Shown here: positions 2,855 through 9,812 of the stretch, in pieces
Layout: each line of letters starts with the position of its first letter
Numbering within the stretch: the first letter of the stretch is position 1
DNA from: Thermoanaerobaculia bacterium
Lineage (GTDB): Bacteria > Acidobacteriota > Thermoanaerobaculia > Multivoradales > DATKCC01
Direction: 5' to 3'
NCBI GenBank assembly: GCA_046538065.1
Contig: JBKHJP010000003.1
Location: forward strand, 1 to 33,642
DNA: 33,642 nucleotides
Translations under genes and position numbers: made by a program
Notes under the pieces: model-generated
Told to the model about the DNA's origin: nothing
Database searches by the model: none
What the model saw: only the letters and a program-made list of their open reading frames with translations

Positions 2855-5569
2855 GTGCCGGCGTCCCCGAACCGGCCGGTGAGCGCCCGCGGCCTCCAGC
2901 GTGTTCCCCGGGCACCGGCCGACGCCGCGTCCCCCTCCCTACCCCTCCTGGCCTCCGTGGCCCTCCTCTCCGGCGCCGCCCTGGGGCTCGAGATCCTCTG
3001 GATGCGGCTGCTGTCGATCGCCTGGTGGCACCACTTCGCCTACATGGTGATCAGCCTGGCGCTCCTGGGCTACGGCGCGAGCGGCACCCTCTTGACACTG
3101 CTCCGGCGGCGTCTCCTTCCGCGGTTCCGGGCGTCGTACGCGGTGGCCGCCACCGGATTCGGCCTGGGGGCTCCCGCCTCCTTCGCCCTGGCCCAGCGGG
3201 TGCCCTACAGCCCGTTGGAGGTGGCCTGGAACCCGGGGGAGCTCCTGGGGCTCGCTGCGGTCTACCTGGTGCTGGCGGTGCCGTTCCTGTGCGCCGGGAC
3301 GGCGGTGGGCCTCGCCCTCACGCGCTTCGCCGCCGCCCCCGGGGGCGCCGCCGGCCGCGTCTACGGGGCGGACCTGGTGGGGGCCGGGGCCGGGGCCGCG
3401 GCGGTGATCGGCCTCCTCTTCGTCCTCCCTCCGGAGGAGGCCCTCCTGGCGCTCGGAGCAGCCGGGCTCGGCGCGGCGGCCCTGGCGGTGCTGGAGCCGC
3501 CGGCGGTGGCGAGGCGCCACGGTGCCGCGGCGGTCCTCCTGGGCGTCGCGGCGGTGGGCCTGGTGGTCGTGGGCCCACGGACGCCCCTCGCCTCGTGGGT
3601 GGAGCCGGAGGTCTCGCAGTACAAGGGCCTGGCCGGCGCCCTCCGGGTCCCCGGCGTGCGGGTGGTGGAGGAGCGCTCGAGCCCGCTGGGCCTCGTGACG
3701 GTGGTGGCGAGCGAGGACGTCCCCCTCCGCCACGCTCCGGGCCTCTCCCTGGCGAGCTCGGAGTCGCCGCCGGAGCAGCACGGGATCTTCATCGACGCCG
3801 ACGCCCTGACGGCGGTGGACCGGTTGGGGGAACCGGAGGCGGAGGGAGGCCCGCCTCCGGGCGAGGGCTCGTCCGCCCCGTGCCCTCCGGGCCCGGACGG
3901 AGAGCGACGCTCCTCCTTGGCCCCGGTGGCGTACCGGGACTGGATGTCCACGGCTCTCCCGTACCACCTCCTGGAGCGCCCGGAGGTGCTGGTCCTGGGC
4001 GCCGGTGGGGGAGGGGAGGTGGCCTCGGCCCTCTACCACTGCGCCTCCCGGGTCGACGCCGTGGAGCTCGACCCGAACGTGGCCGATCTCGTCCGGGAGC
4101 GGTTCGACGACTTCGCCGGTCACCTCTACCGGCGCCCGGAGGTCCGCCTCCACACGGCGGAGGCCCGGGGCTTCGCCGCCGCCTCCGAACGCCGCTGGGA
4201 CCTGGTCCAGGTGGCGCTCCTCGACTCCTTCACCGCCTCCGCCGCCGGCACCCACGCCCTGGCGGAGAGCCACCTCTACACCGTGGAGGCGGTGGGGGAG
4301 CTCCTGGACCGGCTCGCCCCGGGAGGGATGCTCGCCTTCACCCGCTGGCTGGAGGTCCCGCCGCGGGGGGCGGTCAAGCTCTTCGCCACGGCTGTGCGGG
4401 CCCTGGAGGAGCGCGGCGTCGAGGCCCCGGAGGAACGGCTGCTCCTCGTCCGGAGCTGGAAGACGGCGACCCTGGTGGTCAAGGAGAGGCCGTTCACGGC
4501 GGAGGAGCTGGCCGCGGCGCGCCGCTTCGCCCGGGAGCGCTGGTTCGACCTGGCGTGGGCGCCGGGGATGGAGCGGGAGGAGGCGAACCGGTTCAACGTC
4601 CAGGAGGAACCGTACCTCCACGACGCGGCCCGGGCGATCCTGGCCGGGGGCGATGCCCGGCGGCGCTTCTTCGAGCGGTACAAGTTCCACGTCGAGCCGG
4701 CCACCGACGACCGGCCCTACTTCTTCCGCTTCTTCGAGTGGGGGCTCCTGCCGGAGCTCCTGGCCCTGAGGGGCCGGGGGGGGACGCACCTGCTGGAGTG
4801 GGGCTATCCCGTGCTGGTGGCGACCCTGGTCCAGGCGGCGGGCTTCGGGCTGCTCCTGATCGTCGCCCCGCTGGCGGTGGTGCGGCGGCCCGGGGGAAGA
4901 GGCGGTGGCGAGGGCGGTGGCGGGCGCAGGCGCACCGCTCCGGAGCTCGAAGCTTCGAAGCAGGCCGGGGTTCCGCCGGGAGCGAGCTCTCGGCCGGCGG
5001 GGGGCCTGGGGCGGGTCGCGGTCTACTTCGGCTGCCTGGGGCTCGCGTTCCTCTTCGTGGAGATCGCCTTCATCCAGCGCTTCACCCTGTTCCTGGCCCA
5101 CCCGCTCTACGCCGTGGCGGTGGTCCTGGCCGGGTTCCTGGTCTTCGCCGGCGCCGGGAGCGCCGCCTCCGGCTGGCTGGGGGAGAGGTTTCCGGCGGGC
5201 GGTCGACGCCCCTCCGCGGTGGGGCTGGCCGCGGGGAGCGTGGCGCTCCTGGCCGTCGCCTACACGGTGGTCCTGCCGCCCCTCTTCGACCGGACCGCGG
5301 GTCTGCCCCAGCCGGCGAAGGTAGCGCTGGCGCTCGCCTTCCTGGCACCCCTCGCCTTCGCCATGGGCATGCCCTTCCCCCTGGGCCTCGCCCGCACCGG
5401 CCGCCGGGAGCCCGCCTGGGTGCCCTGGGCCTGGGCGGTCAACGGCTGCGCCTCCGTCGTCAGCGCCGTCGCCGCGACGCTCCTGGCCATCCATTTCGGC
5501 TTCACCGCCGTCGTGGCCACGGCGGCGGCGCTCTACCTGGTGGCGGCCTGGGCGCTCCGGGGAGTGTGA
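2855..5569 (+). CDS. Membrane protein with central spermidine-synthase-like SAM-dependent methyltransferase domain
   Basis: Multiple N- and C-terminal TM helices (FAYMVISLALLGYGASG; WAWAVNGCASV). Central VLVLGAGGG, VDAVELDP and ATDDRPYF motifs. Confidence 0.85.
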   Translation: MPASPNRPVSARGLQRVPRAPADAASPSLPLLASVALLSGAALGLEILWMRLLSIAWWHHFAYMVISLALLGYGASGTLLTLLRRRLLPRFRASYAVAATGFGLGAPASFALAQRVPYSPLEVAWNPGELLGLAAVYLVLAVPFLCAGTAVGLALTRFAAAPGGAAGRVYGADLVGAGAGAAAVIGLLFVLPPEEALLALGAAGLGAAALAVLEPPAVARRHGAAAVLLGVAAVGLVVVGPRTPLASWVEPEVSQYKGLAGALRVPGVRVVEERSSPLGLVTVVASEDVPLRHAPGLSLASSESPPEQHGIFIDADALTAVDRLGEPEAEGGPPPGEGSSAPCPPGPDGERRSSLAPVAYRDWMSTALPYHLLERPEVLVLGAGGGGEVASALYHCASRVDAVELDPNVADLVRERFDDFAGHLYRRPEVRLHTAEARGFAAASERRWDLVQVALLDSFTASAAGTHALAESHLYTVEAVGELLDRLAPGGMLAFTRWLEVPPRGAVKLFATAVRALEERGVEAPEERLLLVRSWKTATLVVKERPFTAEELAAARRFARERWFDLAWAPGMEREEANRFNVQEEPYLHDAARAILAGGDARRRFFERYKFHVEPATDDRPYFFRFFEWGLLPELLALRGRGGTHLLEWGYPVLVATLVQAAGFGLLLIVAPLAVVRRPGGRGGGEGGGGRRRTAPELEASKQAGVPPGASSRPAGGLGRVAVYFGCLGLAFLFVEIAFIQRFTLFLAHPLYAVAVVLAGFLVFAGAGSAASGWLGERFPAGGRRPSAVGLAAGSVALLAVAYTVVLPPLFDRTAGLPQPAKVALALAFLAPLAFAMGMPFPLGLARTGRREPAWVPWAWAVNGCASVVSAVAATLLAIHFGFTAVVATAAALYLVAAWALRGV

Positions 5570-5664
5570 GGCCCGAGCTGGGGCCAGGCCCTCGCCCGGT
5601 GGCGTGGGACGGGGCCTCCGGCTCGGGCCGTGGCCCCGTGGCGGGGAAGCACCGACTCCGGGGC

Positions 5665-6969
5665 TCAGGCCGTGGCCTGGTGGAGGAGCTGCAGGGCGGT
5701 CCGGGTCTCGCGCGGGATGTTCCGGGTGGCGAAGACCGGCAGGGCCTCCCGGGCCAGGCGCGCGGCCTCGGACCGGCGGCCCTCCTCCAGGCGGAGGCGA
5801 GCGAGGTCCAGCGAGACCAGGGCGGCTTCGACAGGGATGCCAAGCTGGGTGAATTCGTCTCGCGCGGCCTCGAAGCGGGACCTGGCAGGAGGGCTCTGGC
5901 CGATCGATCGATAGATCCTTCCCTCACTCCAAAGGCTGCGCAGGCAATCTATAGCCCCGGCGATTTCCTTGCCGAGGCGTCGTGCTTTAGACGCGAATCT
6001 CAGAGCGTCCTCTGATCTTCCGCGGTCGCTTAGATATACAGCCAGATTGTTCACCGCCAGAAACTTAAGTCGTGGCTCCTGTGCGATATTGAAGAGCTTT
6101 TCCGCCGTCCGGAGGCCTTGAAGGGCTTCGGCGACAGCCTTCAGCTCCCGGAGAACTGTTGATCTGCGGAGGAGTGCCCGCCCCTCTCCATGAGCATCGC
6201 CGGCTTCACGAGAGAGCTGAATCTCCCGGTCTGAGGCGCGCAACGCCTCCCAGAGGCGGCCCCGGTCTCGAAGGAAAGATGCGGTCAACGACGCCAGCTC
6301 AGCCTCTTCCAAGGGATCACCACTTCCCGCGAGTCGATGCCCTTCTGCGACCTGTAAGGCTTGTGCCGTACCCTCGAAATCCGTGGAGATGCGACGACAG
6401 TTGGCCACCGATCGCCAGCCTTGGGAGCGGAGATCGTTGAGCAGCGCAGCCGACTGACCTGGGACTTCGAGCCTCTCGATCAGTACGAGTGCGAGCGTGG
6501 AAATTTCTTCGCCGACGACGGGATCATTGCACCACAGCCTTCGGGCTTCAGCCAGTAGCGACTCCACCAAGCCCAAGGTCCAGAACCGAGGCGAATTCTC
6601 GATGAGCATTTTCCGATGGGCAGGCGGCTGCGCGATCAGCTCCGCGAGAAGCTCGGGGGCCGAGGCGCGCGAGCCTGACGGCTGCTTCCTCGGGCGGTCG
6701 GCGATCCGATCGAATACCCTCTTCGTTACGTCTCCGTAGGCGCTTTCTGGAACCGTGGGCTCGAGCCGGCCGAAGAGCTCTTGGTGCCTTTCCTCCGCCC
6801 AGGAGCCGAGGCCCCGGAGTCGCGCACGACACTCTTGGCACTGGAAGACGTGCCACGCTACCCGGAAGAGAGTCGCGCCTTCGAGCTTGCGCTCGGCGTA
6901 GCGACAGAGCTCTGAGCAGTTCGGGTGAGTTTCGGTTCGATCCTTGGGCACGGCGATAGTCGGCATCAC
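5665..6969 (-). CDS. ZAS (zinc anti-sigma-like)-TPR protein, paralog 1
   Basis: N-terminal H-x24-HVFQCQEC motif followed by about 8 TPR-like helical repeats, no TM segment. Homologous to 7608..8984 but lacks its last helix. Start is GTG 6969 or ATG 6966. Confidence 0.8.
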   Translation of the reverse strand: MMPTIAVPKDRTETHPNCSELCRYAERKLEGATLFRVAWHVFQCQECRARLRGLGSWAEERHQELFGRLEPTVPESAYGDVTKRVFDRIADRPRKQPSGSRASAPELLAELIAQPPAHRKMLIENSPRFWTLGLVESLLAEARRLWCNDPVVGEEISTLALVLIERLEVPGQSAALLNDLRSQGWRSVANCRRISTDFEGTAQALQVAEGHRLAGSGDPLEEAELASLTASFLRDRGRLWEALRASDREIQLSREAGDAHGEGRALLRRSTVLRELKAVAEALQGLRTAEKLFNIAQEPRLKFLAVNNLAVYLSDRGRSEDALRFASKARRLGKEIAGAIDCLRSLWSEGRIYRSIGQSPPARSRFEAARDEFTQLGIPVEAALVSLDLARLRLEEGRRSEAARLAREALPVFATRNIPRETRTALQLLHQATA

Positions 6970-7040
6970 GTCGGCTGAGGCAAGCGGGATGTTAACAGAG
7001 GAGTCGCCAAACCCGTGAAGCGAATATTACGAATAAAATC

Positions 7041-7051
7041 ATGTTCCGAAT
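7041..7051 (-). promoter_or_regulatory. Putative operator ATTCGGAACAT in the AT-rich promoter region of TPR paralog 1
   Basis: 10/11 match to ATTCGGTACAT (9122-9132) upstream of paralog 2. A TG-N-TAACAT extended -10 candidate lies at 6989-6997. Confidence 0.4.
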
Positions 7052-7066
7052 TATGTTGCGACAGGA

Positions 7067-7088
7067 GGCCGGCTTTCGCAAGCCGGCC
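7067..7088 (-). terminator. Hairpin after the DPNG peptide gene (GGCCGGCTT-GCGA-AAGCCGGCC)
   Basis: Perfect 9-bp stem with a GNRA loop, about 20 nt after the stop. The U tail is weak. Confidence 0.55.
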
Positions 7089-7107
7089 AGACCAGATCTG
7101 AAGCTAC

Positions 7108-7437
7108 CTACCCGTTGGGATCGAAATCAGCTCCCGACTCACCGCAGCTGCTGAGTTCGCAGCTTGTGGACGTCGGCCCGGCAAGAGCATCATCGGGAGA
7201 ATCGCCTTCCAGATGGGAGACGAAGATGCCGAAATCAGGAAGCTCATTCTTTCCATTCAGTGACGACAGAGCTACGACCCAGTCGACGAATGCATGATAT
7301 CCGTCCATCACCTGCCCAAGTAGCATCTGCGGTTCGTCACCGACGGAGTCCCCGTCCGCAAGGGCGGGGGCCGGTACGGACACGGAGCAGACGAGTGCGC
7401 CCAGCCAGACGAAGACGATCCAAGATTTCTTTCGCAT
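7108..7437 (-). CDS. Small secreted protein / peptide precursor (109 aa) ending ...CELSSCGESGADFDPNG
   Basis: GGAGG RBS at 7445-7449 and ATG at 7437. Sec signal peptide MRKKSWIVFVWLGALVCSVSVPAPALA, then an acidic low-complexity mature region and a C-terminal DPNG. Confidence 0.8.
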   Translation of the reverse strand: MRKKSWIVFVWLGALVCSVSVPAPALADGDSVGDEPQMLLGQVMDGYHAFVDWVVALSSLNGKNELPDFGIFVSHLEGDSPDDALAGPTSTSCELSSCGESGADFDPNG

Positions 7438-7607
7438 AGTGCTGCCTCCTTGCTCAAGCGCGCGGATTCCAGAGAGGAACCCCGCTCTGTTGAGGTGTTG
7501 GCGGACCGGCAACACGGACAGAAGCCGCTCCACCGTGATAGCGGAGAGCTGTGCTCCCCGCACGTTTCATTGGCTTCCGAAAGAGAGGAGACAGGGCGGG
7601 CGTCAGG

Positions 7608-8984
7608 TTACTGCACGAACTCGAATCGGAGGGCCGGGTTGCGCCGAGCACGGCGAAAGTACCGGGCGGCTTCTTGGACCATCGCGACCGTGGCTGCGCC
7701 CTCCTCCATCGCTCGCTGAACGATCGAAAGCGCAGCGAGCGCCTCTCGGTGCACATCTCGCGTCGTGAAAATCGGGATCATTTCGAGGGCGAGCTCTCGT
7801 GCCTGTCCGGTTCGGTTCGTCTCGAGATAAAAGGCCGCTAGGTCGAGAGCGACCAAGGCTGCGTCGTAGCCTATTCCTTGGTCGGCAAATCCTTCCATGG
7901 CGTCTCGAAGGGCGGCTTCAGCGGTCGTGTCGTGGCCGCAGCACATCGCTACGAGCCCCTCCAGCCATGACGCTCGGATTCGATCGAGGGCACCGCCGAC
8001 AGCTGTCGCGAGGTGCCGAACTTCGGGAAGCAGCTTTTTCGCTTCGGGGCCGCGCCCGGATTCGCTCAGGTAGAGGACGAGGTTCCCATGAAGCAGAAGC
8101 TGCATCCGAGGTTCCTGAGAGGCGTCGACCAGTGTGGCGGCGTGCTCAAGAGTGTCGATCGCAACCTCGACGTCTCCGGCTTGCCGAAGCGTGGTGGCCC
8201 TTTGCACCAAGCCTCGCCCTTGCCCTTGCCGGTCTCCCGCCTCCCGGAAAATCTCGATCGCGCGGTCGACCGCCTGGAGCGCTTCGTCGAACTGCCGCTG
8301 GTCACGGTAGTAGGAGGCCTTGAGCGACAGCAGCTCCGCCTCTTCCAGCAGGTCCCCGCTGCCTTGCACGCGGAACTCCTCCGCCAGGTCGAAGGCCTCC
8401 GTCACGCTCCGGAGGTCGGAGCGGATCCGGCGGCAGTTGGCGATGTAGGACCAGGCTTCCGCCTTCAGGTCGTTGAGGAGCGCGGTGCCGTGGATCCGCC
8501 GGTCCAGGCGGTAGACCACCGCCAGGGCGAGCTCCGCGAGCTCCTCCGCCGTGCCGGGCCCTTCGCACCAGGTCCGGCGGCACTCCCCGAGCAGGTACTC
8601 GGCGAATCCGTAGGTGGCGAAGCGCGAGGCGTTCTCCACCAGCAGGCGCCGCCGGGACGGCGGATGGGGCTCGAGCTCCCTCCACAGGTCGGCGGCGGAG
8701 GTCCGCTCCCGCTCGATCTGGATCCCGAGCCGGCGGAACTTCTCCGCCACGTGGCGGGTCACGCCGGTGTAGCTCGACTCGTCGTGCTGGAAGCGGCTCT
8801 CGCCGAACATCTTCCCGAACAGGGCCTCGGCTCTCGGCCCGGCCTCCGGGAGCAGGGCGCGGCAGCGCCCGCACAGGAACAGGTGCCACGCCACCTCGAA
8901 GAGCGCCTCGCGCTCCAGCTCGTGGTCGCCGAAACACCGGAGCGTCTCGACGTCCAGATGGTCGTCCACGCGATCGTCCGTCAT
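7608..8984 (-). CDS. ZAS (zinc anti-sigma-like)-TPR protein, paralog 2 (458 aa)
   Basis: Start at ATG 8984 (MTDDRVDDHLDV...) with a GGGGGGAG RBS. H-x24-HLFLCGRC motif, then TPR-like repeats ending ARRNPALRFE. Confidence 0.82.
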   Translation of the reverse strand: MTDDRVDDHLDVETLRCFGDHELEREALFEVAWHLFLCGRCRALLPEAGPRAEALFGKMFGESRFQHDESSYTGVTRHVAEKFRRLGIQIERERTSAADLWRELEPHPPSRRRLLVENASRFATYGFAEYLLGECRRTWCEGPGTAEELAELALAVVYRLDRRIHGTALLNDLKAEAWSYIANCRRIRSDLRSVTEAFDLAEEFRVQGSGDLLEEAELLSLKASYYRDQRQFDEALQAVDRAIEIFREAGDRQGQGRGLVQRATTLRQAGDVEVAIDTLEHAATLVDASQEPRMQLLLHGNLVLYLSESGRGPEAKKLLPEVRHLATAVGGALDRIRASWLEGLVAMCCGHDTTAEAALRDAMEGFADQGIGYDAALVALDLAAFYLETNRTGQARELALEMIPIFTTRDVHREALAALSIVQRAMEEGAATVAMVQEAARYFRRARRNPALRFEFVQ

Positions 8985-9302: not shown

Positions 9303-9812
9303 ATGAGACACACACCACTCGTCGTCATCGCCGCCCTCGTGCTGTTCGGCTGGCACTCTCCGGACGCCGTGGCCGAGTCCTCCGGAGGTCCGCGGGACGA
9401 GGCGCCGGCCCTCCGTTTGTCGGACCGCCCCTCGAAGCTGGAGCTCCACTTCGTGCAGCGCTGGCTGGAGGACTGGCGACGCAGCGCCGGGCCGGTCGAG
9501 CTCGCGGTGGCCGACCTCCGTCCGGACGGCCGGGGCGCCCCGCACCTGGAGAAGGCCGCGTGCATGGACCTGGCGGCGGCGTTACTGGAGCTGGACCGCC
9601 GGGCGGTCCTGCCCGCTCCGGACGCCGCCGTCTCCTTCCACCTGGAACGGGGGCTGCGCCGGCTGGCCCGCACCGCCGTCACCTGCCTCACCCGGCGTCG
9701 GTACGCGGCCCGTCGTGCCCTGGAGGAGGCCCGGGGCGCTTTCGGCGAAGCGGAGCGCCTGCTGCGGCGCTACGAGCTGGGAGCTGGTAGCCTTGGCGAC
9801 CTCGCACGATGA
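9303..9812 (+). CDS. Hypothetical secreted helical protein
   Basis: 169 aa with signal peptide MRHTPLVVIAALVLFGW...AVA and host-like codon usage. Its stop overlaps the next start (ATGA). Confidence 0.6.
   Translation: MRHTPLVVIAALVLFGWHSPDAVAESSGGPRDEAPALRLSDRPSKLELHFVQRWLEDWRRSAGPVELAVADLRPDGRGAPHLEKAACMDLAAALLELDRRAVLPAPDAAVSFHLERGLRRLARTAVTCLTRRRYAARRALEEARGAFGEAERLLRRYELGAGSLGDLAR

Follow-up and report, generated by a model that had tools for sequence, protein, structure and literature searches.

A candidate pherotype-like cassette spanning two tetratricopeptide repeat genes of a Thermoanaerobaculia bacterium

Genes and base composition of the locus

The DNA analysed here is a stretch of 33,642 nucleotides (nt) from a Thermoanaerobaculia bacterium (assembly GCA_046538065.1, contig JBKHJP010000003.1, positions 1 to 33,642), hereafter called the window. 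Its minus strand carries, between positions 5665 and 8984, two genes for tetratricopeptide repeat (TPR) proteins with a gene for a small exported protein between them. P2 (7608-8984) encodes 458 amino acids (aa), with a start confirmed by database relatives, whose N-termini agree with it; pep (7108-7437) encodes 109 aa, and P1 (5665-6969) encodes 434 aa. P1 and P2 are full-length paralogs, identical at 174 of 426 positions (41%), and both match generic TPR families only in Pfam (TPR_12, E = 1.2e-10 for P1 and 5.8e-9 for P2). The subject of this study is a block of lower GC content that includes pep and has its borders inside the two TPR genes, and that probably represents one allele of an exchangeable cassette.

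A lower-GC island with borders at 5825 and 8265 had been proposed in a first-pass annotation made from the letters alone, and the composition profile bears this out. Windows of 300 nt had GC contents of 0.567-0.683 across 5701-8400, against 0.72-0.82 in the flanking genes; over the whole assembly (4.4 Mb), the mean for windows of this size was 0.730, with a standard deviation of 0.040. The block from 5800 to 8252 has a GC content of 0.615, and composition was equally low in just 0.24% of 5505 genome windows of 2400 nt. Stretches below the GC content of the block were found only on contigs C103 (3-7 kb), C265 (11-15 and 30-31 kb) and C501 (17 kb), at 0.56-0.61 in 2400-nt windows.

The profile of the G/C fraction at third codon positions (GC3) was likewise not flat. 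In P2, the near-exclusive use of G/C-ending codons was confined to the N-terminal half, as the annotation had stated: GC3 was 0.95 through codon 244 (232/244) and 0.68 thereafter (146/214), with a change point at about 8252 (log-likelihood ratio 30.5, matched by none of 2000 permutations). P1, described as atypical throughout except for its tail, had a GC3 of 0.68 through codon 390 (265/390) and 1.00 over the remainder (44/44), with a change point at about 5799 (log-likelihood ratio 15.9, again 0 of 2000 permutations as strong). By segment, GC3 was 0.67 for P2 codons 245-383 and 0.71 for codons 384-458, and 0.76 for P1 codons 1-100 and 0.65 for codons 101-375; pep has a GC3 of 0.65. Among the other open reading frames (ORFs) in the window, those reaching 90 aa or more had values of 0.84-0.97, the sole exception being a 104-aa ORF at the contig start (0.77). 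The borders first assigned by eye are no more than about 30 nt away from the GC3 change points, and near the breaks in amino-acid identity described below (about 5832 and 8318). A weak inverted repeat is present at both change points (arms 5785-5811 and 8253-8279, 27 nt, 70% complementary). It was taken as a chance occurrence, being one of 15 comparable weak pairs and in the wrong orientation for same-strand homologs.

Along the minus strand, P2 codons 1-222 (8319-8984) encode a head resembling zinc-binding anti-sigma factors and the first TPR helices, with the native composition (GC3 212/222, 0.95), and form the left conserved flank. Codons 223-244 (8253-8318), the putative left crossover zone, retain a high GC3 (20/22) and are already allele-specific in sequence. 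The left part of the putative cassette consists of codons 245-458 and the stop codon (7608-8252), which cover the C-terminal TPR half at low GC3. A spacer of 170 nt (7438-7607, GC 0.63) lies between P2 and pep, and one of 138 nt (6970-7107), whose GC content of 0.52 is the minimum of the block, between pep and P1. The right part comprises P1 codons 1-379 (5833-6969), the bulk of a second zinc-anti-sigma-like/TPR paralog and also low in GC3, followed by a tail of native composition that forms the right conserved flank (codons 380-434 and stop, 5665-5832, GC3 53/55).

Beyond these three genes and two spacers the block holds nothing else. Both TPR frames are intact, and scans for ORFs, tRNAs, Rfam families and repeats found no integrase, insertion sequence (IS) or transposase, tRNA, Rfam family or flanking direct repeat, so the block does not have the make-up of a classical island. 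The intact frames and the lack of an integrase or IS had both been remarked upon in the annotation. A GC-rich hairpin of 22 nt, read from the sequence at about 7067-7088, directly follows the pep stop codon. It was absent from the output of the terminator scan, and the promoter and terminator scan as a whole gave nothing above shuffled expectation.

The source assembly is metagenome-derived and fragmented (522 contigs, 76.6% complete). Independent Logan contigs were aligned to positions 5400-8700 to determine if the block could be a chimera. In run X1, a single contig of 5681 nt spans the whole interval with no differences and at a flat depth of 11.5. Run X2 bridges both junctions with two contigs (5594-7045 and 7032-8700, depth 6.8), and run X3 does so with contigs covering 5755-6087 and 8122-8395, in both cases without differences. 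The two junctions are real, and it is very unlikely that they are assembly artefacts, because an artefact would require a jump in frame at both junctions, with depth equal on either side. A second study yielded two runs, X5 and X6, that contained only 0.05-0.06 of the sampled words and were not used for any inference.

Mosaic alleles in two clades

Among 5.8 billion proteins, the close relatives of P2 were P0002 (83% identity), P0003 (80% by BLAST, 79% in a full-length alignment) and P0004 (76%). P1 had a single close relative, P0085 (57%), the next match being at 40%. Identity between P2 and P0003 was strongly uneven: 217 of 222 residues (98%) over positions 1-222, 11 of 22 (50%) over 223-244, 75 of 139 (54%) over 245-383, and 59 of 75 (79%) over 384-458. 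Over the same four segments P2 and P0002 were 89%, 95%, 68% and 85% identical, and the pair P0003 and P0004, which served as a collinear control, was uniform at 91%, 91%, 88% and 88%. Since P0003 and P0004 are collinear and the N-terminal half of P2 is nearest to P0003, the P2 of the window would be the recombinant, with its C-terminal half replaced. P1 and P0085 were 61% identical over residues 1-100, with residues 29-80 particularly close, and 48% identical over residues 101-375. In the last 44 residues identity rose to 42/44 (95%), within an identical run that begins at about residue 379. Flanks that are kept around a variable interior are what the first-pass annotation had proposed to look for in close relatives, and they were found at both ends of the block.

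Separate trees were built from the N- and C-terminal halves of 45 family members, as had also been suggested, and the two conflict. The partner of P2 is P0003 in the N-half tree (path length 0.022) and P0002 in the C-half tree (path 0.37), where P0003 is far removed (path 0.64). The path to the next clade, by comparison, grows merely from 0.48 to 0.76 between the halves. Approximately unbiased (AU) tests rejected the grouping of P2 with P0002 on N-half data (p = 0.0059) and of P2 with P0003 on C-half data (p = 0.00014), while the grouping of P0003 with P0004 was not rejected by the N-half data (p = 0.20). P2 and P0002-P0004 form one clade in both trees (support 100 in the N-half, 99 in the C-half). 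This indicates that the incoming half came from a relative with the same locus and a deeply diverged allele, and not from a distant low-GC donor.

The position of the left border can be narrowed further. Codons 223-244 of P2 still have the high GC3 of the flank (p = 0.014 under the composition of the island), and the residues that they encode are 50% identical to P0003 and 95% identical to P0002. Since this stretch is allele-specific, the crossover would lie at or before codon 223 (about 8318), some 20 codons ahead of the compositional change point. At the right border, the run of identity to P0085 starts at about codon 379 (about 5832), and GC3 is uniform from codon 391. Both border zones encode conserved family motifs, and both borders fall in conserved TPR segments; this placement, together with the lack of any mobile-element signature, fits homologous recombination. 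The mosaic identities, the tree conflict and the placement of the borders all support the proposal, made at first inspection, that the block was acquired by homologous recombination within conserved TPR helices.

The same pattern was found at the DNA level in a sister clade. A scan of Joint Genome Institute (JGI) metagenome contigs gave 15 ortholog loci and no close allele of the window locus, the best match being at 66%. Three of these loci, L042, L043 and L044, encode proteins 64-65% identical to P2 and have GC3 change points after codons 265, 272 and 264, respectively, at which GC3 falls from 0.96-0.97 to 0.74-0.76 (0 of 300 permutations as strong in each case). Their pairwise nt identity is 91-100% from position -319 to about +760 of the gene, 63-79% in the C-terminal half and 39-60% in the downstream peptide gene. 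Between L043 and L044 it recovers to 0.93 some 35 nt past the peptide stop codon, at a terminator-like hairpin, which places the borders of the variable block at about codon 253 and about 35 nt after that stop. At conserved residues, the three loci use identical codons in 93-94% of cases in the N-half and in 42-47% in the C-half, so that synonymous sites are saturated between the alleles.

Three allele classes are present in the C-half in each clade, and different alleles share a habitat. L043 and L044 are from the same metagenome. In run X4, a hypersaline-lake sample of the study that supplied X1-X3, a contig matches 8287-8452 of the window with 16 differences (about 90% nt identity) and then diverges, and its loose end, translated by eye, corresponds to an allele of the P0004 type. 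A second allele is therefore present in that study. Orthologs in genus g6 and at loci L046-L048 have a flat GC3 and no mosaic, and their peptide genes have a GC3 of 0.78-0.92, compared with 0.62-0.69 in the two mosaic clades. That low GC3 is a trait of the whole family was rejected on these grounds, and because the other paralogs show no mid-gene drop. The sequences compared suggest that the cassette is a recurrent feature of the P2 locus and that lower GC3 accompanies it. A possible cause is that GC-favouring forces act less strongly on allele classes that are rare and isolated from recombination; another is lower-GC relatives absent from the sample.

Two further origins for the arrangement were considered and rejected. 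Insertion into a single native gene, splitting it in two, does not agree with the P1 tail, which is 36-53% identical to P2 orthologs, compared with 58-73% for P2's own tail. Gene conversion from another paralog of the genome does not agree with the remaining 15 strong paralogs, which are about 30% identical and have high GC3 (0.85-0.98). A search of nine family genomes with P1 as query found no P1 ortholog, the best matches being P2 orthologs at 36-42%.

The locus is flanked by a gene for a spermidine-synthase-like membrane protein on one side, and by a gene for a small secreted protein and a DUF819 gene on the other. A divergent gene at 9303-9812 on the plus strand encodes a 169-aa protein with a hydrophobic N-terminus and with no Pfam or NCBIfam family; it adjoins P2 orthologs in three of six relatives' loci, at 40-42% identity. 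In genus g6, an ORF of about 105 aa for a cytoplasmic protein overlaps the start of the P2 ortholog (L034, 7091-7414, minus strand; L031, 7794-8108, plus strand). It matches nothing in Pfam or NCBIfam and has no counterpart upstream of P2 in the window. Family TPR genes of genome G026 often stand in tandem, as two or three (L062, L066 and L070-L073), and because such arrays are frequent there, the P2-pep-P1 layout would be one form of a common arrangement.

The exported protein family and its putative receptors

The product of pep has a hydrophobic, signal-peptide-like N-terminus of the Sec type (KD19 of 1.98 at residue 7) and a C-terminus of the form C-x-x-x-x-C ... G-x-x-F-D-P-N-G, which is followed directly by the stop codon. 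A word-index search with pep returned only pep itself. It aligns, nevertheless, with the peptides encoded downstream of P2 orthologs: every ortholog with enough sequence is followed by a gene for an exported protein of about 100 aa that ends in DP(N/D)G. Behind a signal-like N-terminus these proteins, pep included, share a Trp-rich amphipathic stretch, then a linker of low complexity and a G-x-x-hydrophobic-D-P-(N/D)-G end, and only the extreme C-terminus is conserved, the rest being of low complexity. Out of 1.84 billion cluster representatives, a profile built from 11 positional orthologs identified 86, of which 7 had E ≤ 1e-10. Nearly all of the 86 have lengths of 90-123 aa, and in 77 of them the C-terminus is DP[NDE]G followed by no more than three residues. 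Neither pep nor its family belongs to a Pfam or NCBIfam family, and the atlas matches of pep were unnamed clusters with scores below 0.9.

Genes with this ending lie next to TPR genes. Of the 18 ORFs in this genome that have the DP(N/D)G ending, 11 adjoin a family TPR gene on the same strand, compared with 0 of 18 for ORFs with shuffled control motifs. The peptide gene is upstream of the TPR gene in ten of the 11 pairs; only at the window locus does it lie between two TPR genes. At 20 loci fetched from three relatives, all eight ORFs with the ending adjoin a family TPR gene. Some precursors carry the terminal motif more than once. A minus-strand ORF of contig C201, ending near strand-oriented position 5693, has five ...MDPNG copies, and two-copy MDPNG precursors occur at L033, at L048 and on contig C455, which recalls the tandemly repeated pheromone propeptides of Bacillota. 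A further member of the family, P0149, has the same length as pep (109 aa), 34% identity to it and a very similar Cys-containing C-terminal region, and may be the peptide allele of a rival cassette.

The TPR proteins have features expected of cytoplasmic receptors. No transmembrane or hydrophobic segment, secretion signal or toxin domain was found in P1 or P2. The AlphaFold2 (AF2) model of P2 is an all-helical superhelix (mean predicted local distance difference test score, pLDDT, 84.1; predicted template modelling score, pTM, 0.66). Its Foldseek matches are generic TPR peptide binders, with LGN/Pins first (E = 2.7e-5), and include Rap chains at ranks 3, 8, 22, 26, 38, 47 and 48, some of them with bound pheromone. 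In the N-terminal 45 residues or so, H9, H34, C38 and C41 (H-x24-H-x3-C-x2-C) are invariant in 16 orthologs, and the same spacing occurs in P1. This head gave weak matches to anti-sigma factors (ChrR, PDB 2q1z_B, E = 0.008; TIGR02451, E = 1.6e-4; RseA, E = 0.009). No helix-turn-helix (HTH) family of Pfam matched P1 or P2 at E values up to 1. In a group of distant TPR-family members, P0065-P0083, an XRE-type HTH domain (PF01381) replaces the zinc-anti-sigma-like head, which gives the classic RRNPP architecture; two of these proteins are labelled Thermoanaerobaculia at NCBI.

A predicted complex of P2 residues 100-458 with pep residues 29-109 gave weak support for binding. It scored 0.34 (runs of 0.28, 0.34 and 0.37) against 0.01 for the best control, and the runs shared at least 47% of contacts. 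The mark used for such scores is reached by 116 of 157 solved complexes and by 2 of 215 mismatched pairs; among scores of 0.60 or less, where this prediction falls, it is reached by only 18 of the 157 solved complexes and by both of the passing mismatches.

Competing explanations and known systems

Taken together, these data make it probable that the block, with its ends at about 5800-5832 and about 8252-8318, represents one allele of a hypervariable cassette exchanged by homologous recombination. The cassette would comprise the C-terminal TPR half of P2, pep, and P1 minus its last 55 or so codons. Exchange would take place among related lineages, with crossovers in conserved TPR-coding segments between conserved flanks, and in this genome an earlier allele of the lineage, of the P0003/P0004 type, would have been replaced.

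A mechanism can be suggested for what such an exchange would do. The exported protein of about 100 aa would be processed outside the cell, and a C-terminal fragment would re-enter the cytoplasm and bind in the TPR groove. Binding would alter the action of the head domain on a sigma factor encoded elsewhere. Replacing the binding half together with the peptide gene would then shift the specificity of signalling at one stroke, as happens when pherotypes switch. We regard this peptide-sensing mechanism, taken on its own, as plausible though tentative. Peptide binding, re-import and sigma control are inferred, and the swapped half of P2 would be the part that binds the peptide, which would pair with P2 rather than, or besides, P1. 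More speculative still, and in our judgement doubtful, is a wider reading in which each genome of Acidobacteriota-type bacteria would encode dozens of private peptide channels, every one made up of a Sec-exported propeptide of about 100 aa with a hydrophobic-DP(N/D)G end and a cytoplasmic receptor whose zinc anti-sigma head is fused to a TPR peptide clamp, with pherotypes at least at P2. Under this wider reading the coexisting cassette alleles would be ancient, their lowered GC3 would reflect a long separate history of each allele class, and the whole would be a Gram-negative counterpart of RRNPP signalling with social dialects.

Several points weigh against the cassette and its proposed function. 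All runs that support the junctions come from one study, and X1 and X2 may be source samples of the window, so their independence is incomplete. The mosaic in the window's own clade is established at the protein level, with P0002-P0004 and P0085 known only from Logan assemblies; the GC3 of the rival alleles, and whether P0085 adjoins a P0003-type gene, lie outside such data. The trees came from quick searches, and the groups submitted to the AU tests were named after the trees had been seen. The low GC3 has no explanation, since the C-half groups within its own clade and no low-GC donor was identified. With regard to function, the order seen in ten of the 11 pairs, with the peptide gene preceding the TPR gene, means that pep may belong to P1 rather than P2, and just 8 of 32 family TPR ORFs sampled in relatives have an adjacent peptide gene. 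The anti-sigma matches fall well short of the profile cut-offs (21.5 against 124.5 bits for TIGR02451, and 16.1 against 165 for NF041468), and none of 19 Sigma70_r2 matches lies on the contigs holding the 16 main paralogs, a within-contig result on short contigs. The complex prediction is weak, its peptide partner being poorly folded (pLDDT 38-40).

The alternative that survives best is divergence in place without transfer, which we consider unlikely. The alleles would be old balanced polymorphisms or fast-evolving segments whose flanks were homogenised by recombination or constraint, and low GC3 would be a by-product of the evolutionary regime of the cassette. Such a history would account for the monophyly of each clade's alleles in the C-half tree (supports 99 and 87), for the lower GC3 of all three sister-clade alleles and for the saturation of synonymous sites between alleles, and it agrees with the observation that P2-type and P0003-type alleles (52-54% identical) are more diverged from each other than from another genus (55-61%). 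It is opposed by the conflict between the half trees, and by the 98% identity of the P2 N-half to P0003 alongside the collinear 88-91% identity of P0003 to P0004, an indication that one lineage changed its cassette recently relative to its flanks. Moreover, it also requires homologous recombination at the same borders, and differs from the exchange of a cassette mainly in which piece moved.

Improbable, in our view, is a classical island from a distant organism of lower GC content, brought in by a mobile element or by illegitimate recombination. The GC content of the block, far below the genome mean and among the lowest of the genome at its size, would be expected of such an import, as would the failure of the word search to find a homolog of pep and the single close homolog of P1. 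The gene content, however, is limited to the three genes, with no integrase, IS, tRNA or flanking repeat, and both borders lie in frame within homologous genes. Relatives carry orthologs of both the C-half and the peptide, and P1 is close to P0085 in residues 29-80 and in its tail.

A polymorphic toxin/immunity or bacteriocin module is less probable still. The exported protein would then be a weapon or surface factor, the TPR proteins its regulators or protectors, and the exchange would resemble swapping in contact-dependent inhibition (CDI) or Rhs systems, where, as here, a variable C-terminal part and the next gene are replaced together between conserved flanks, at lower GC. The lack of any secretion signal, transmembrane segment or toxin domain in P1 and P2 argues against it, as does an exported protein that is of low complexity apart from its extreme C-terminus, and the dozens of paralogous pairs per genome and the TPR groove resembling that of peptide binders fit sensing better. 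Least probable of all is an assembly chimera, in which reads of two co-occurring relatives were joined at conserved TPR sequence: a fragmented metagenome-derived assembly and a second allele in the same study would favour it, but it would need two in-frame switches, a separate k-mer assembly gives the 5681-nt contig at flat depth, two more samples bridge both junctions without differences, and the sister clade repeats the pattern on separate contigs.

If the cassette is accepted, the joint replacement of half a receptor gene and the adjacent peptide gene in two separate clades provides evolutionary evidence for a matched pair, of a kind that adjacency by itself could not give. It also points to P2 residues 223-383 or so as the part that sets specificity. 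The alleles form natural sets for studies of binding and cross-talk, with the window allele set against P0003 and P0004, and L042, L043 and L044 among themselves. The low GC3 of all sampled cassette alleles in GC-rich genomes may inform how base composition is kept up where recombination is rare. Should the signalling prove true, peptide dialects that differ between strains would no longer be confined to Bacillota, and would reach into an environmental phylum that is abundant and poorly studied.

Among known systems, the zinc-binding anti-sigma factors (ChrR, RsrA and RseA) share with P2 the H-x24-H-x3-C-x2-C pattern and the weak profile matches; the zinc ligands of ChrR are spaced identically. 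They differ in that no sigma gene is adjacent or on the same contig here, and in that the sensor part is a long TPR superhelix.

The RRNPP(A) systems (Rap-Phr, PlcR-PapR, NprR-NprX and AimR-AimP) offer another parallel. In these too, a cytoplasmic TPR receptor adjoins a small gene for a Sec-exported propeptide with the signal at its C-terminal end, some propeptides are multi-copy, and paralogous pairs are numerous within a genome; in addition, the best Foldseek matches of the P2 model include Rap structures. Allelic variation is also known there, in the form of PlcR-PapR pherotypes and of variation in the AimP peptide. No membership was found at the sequence level, however, Pfam assigning generic TPR families only. 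The propeptide here is about 100 aa long, and where RRNPP receptors have an HTH or Rap effector domain the head is zinc-anti-sigma-like. No paper describing the peptide/TPR pair or a signal ending in DPNG was found in the open-access PubMed Central (PMC) and bioRxiv literature. In the relevant parts of two papers, RRNPP systems are treated as a trait solely of Bacillota and of the mobile elements that these bacteria carry (PMC10075063, PMC9765709).

In its allelic structure, the locus resembles two quorum-sensing loci with membrane receptors. In Bacillus subtilis, the comQXPA locus has a hypervariable stretch that is confined to the signal gene and the sensing part of the receptor, with borders inside genes, highly conserved flanks, discrete allele classes and alleles that coexist at small spatial scale. 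Clusters of comQ are 65-70% identical at the nt level while gyrA is about 99% identical (PMC4408185). The counterpart here is the sister clade, with 63-79% in the C-half and 93-100% in the N-half. The two loci differ in that the receptor here is a soluble TPR protein and not a membrane histidine kinase, in that there is no gene for a modifying enzyme, and in that variation takes in the 3' half of the receptor gene plus, in the window, most of a second receptor gene. The host, too, is a GC-rich relative of Acidobacteriota-labelled genomes, and dialect specificity is here a prediction. The specificity groups of Staphylococcus aureus agr are built similarly: between conserved flanks lies a variable block that takes in part of agrB, the whole of agrD and the half of agrC that does the sensing. 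Unlike the window locus, agr has its receptor in the membrane, and its peptide is a thiolactone whose production depends on a dedicated processing enzyme. On this comparison, the best explanation of the window locus would be a pherotype-like cassette, which in form matches the comQXP locus.

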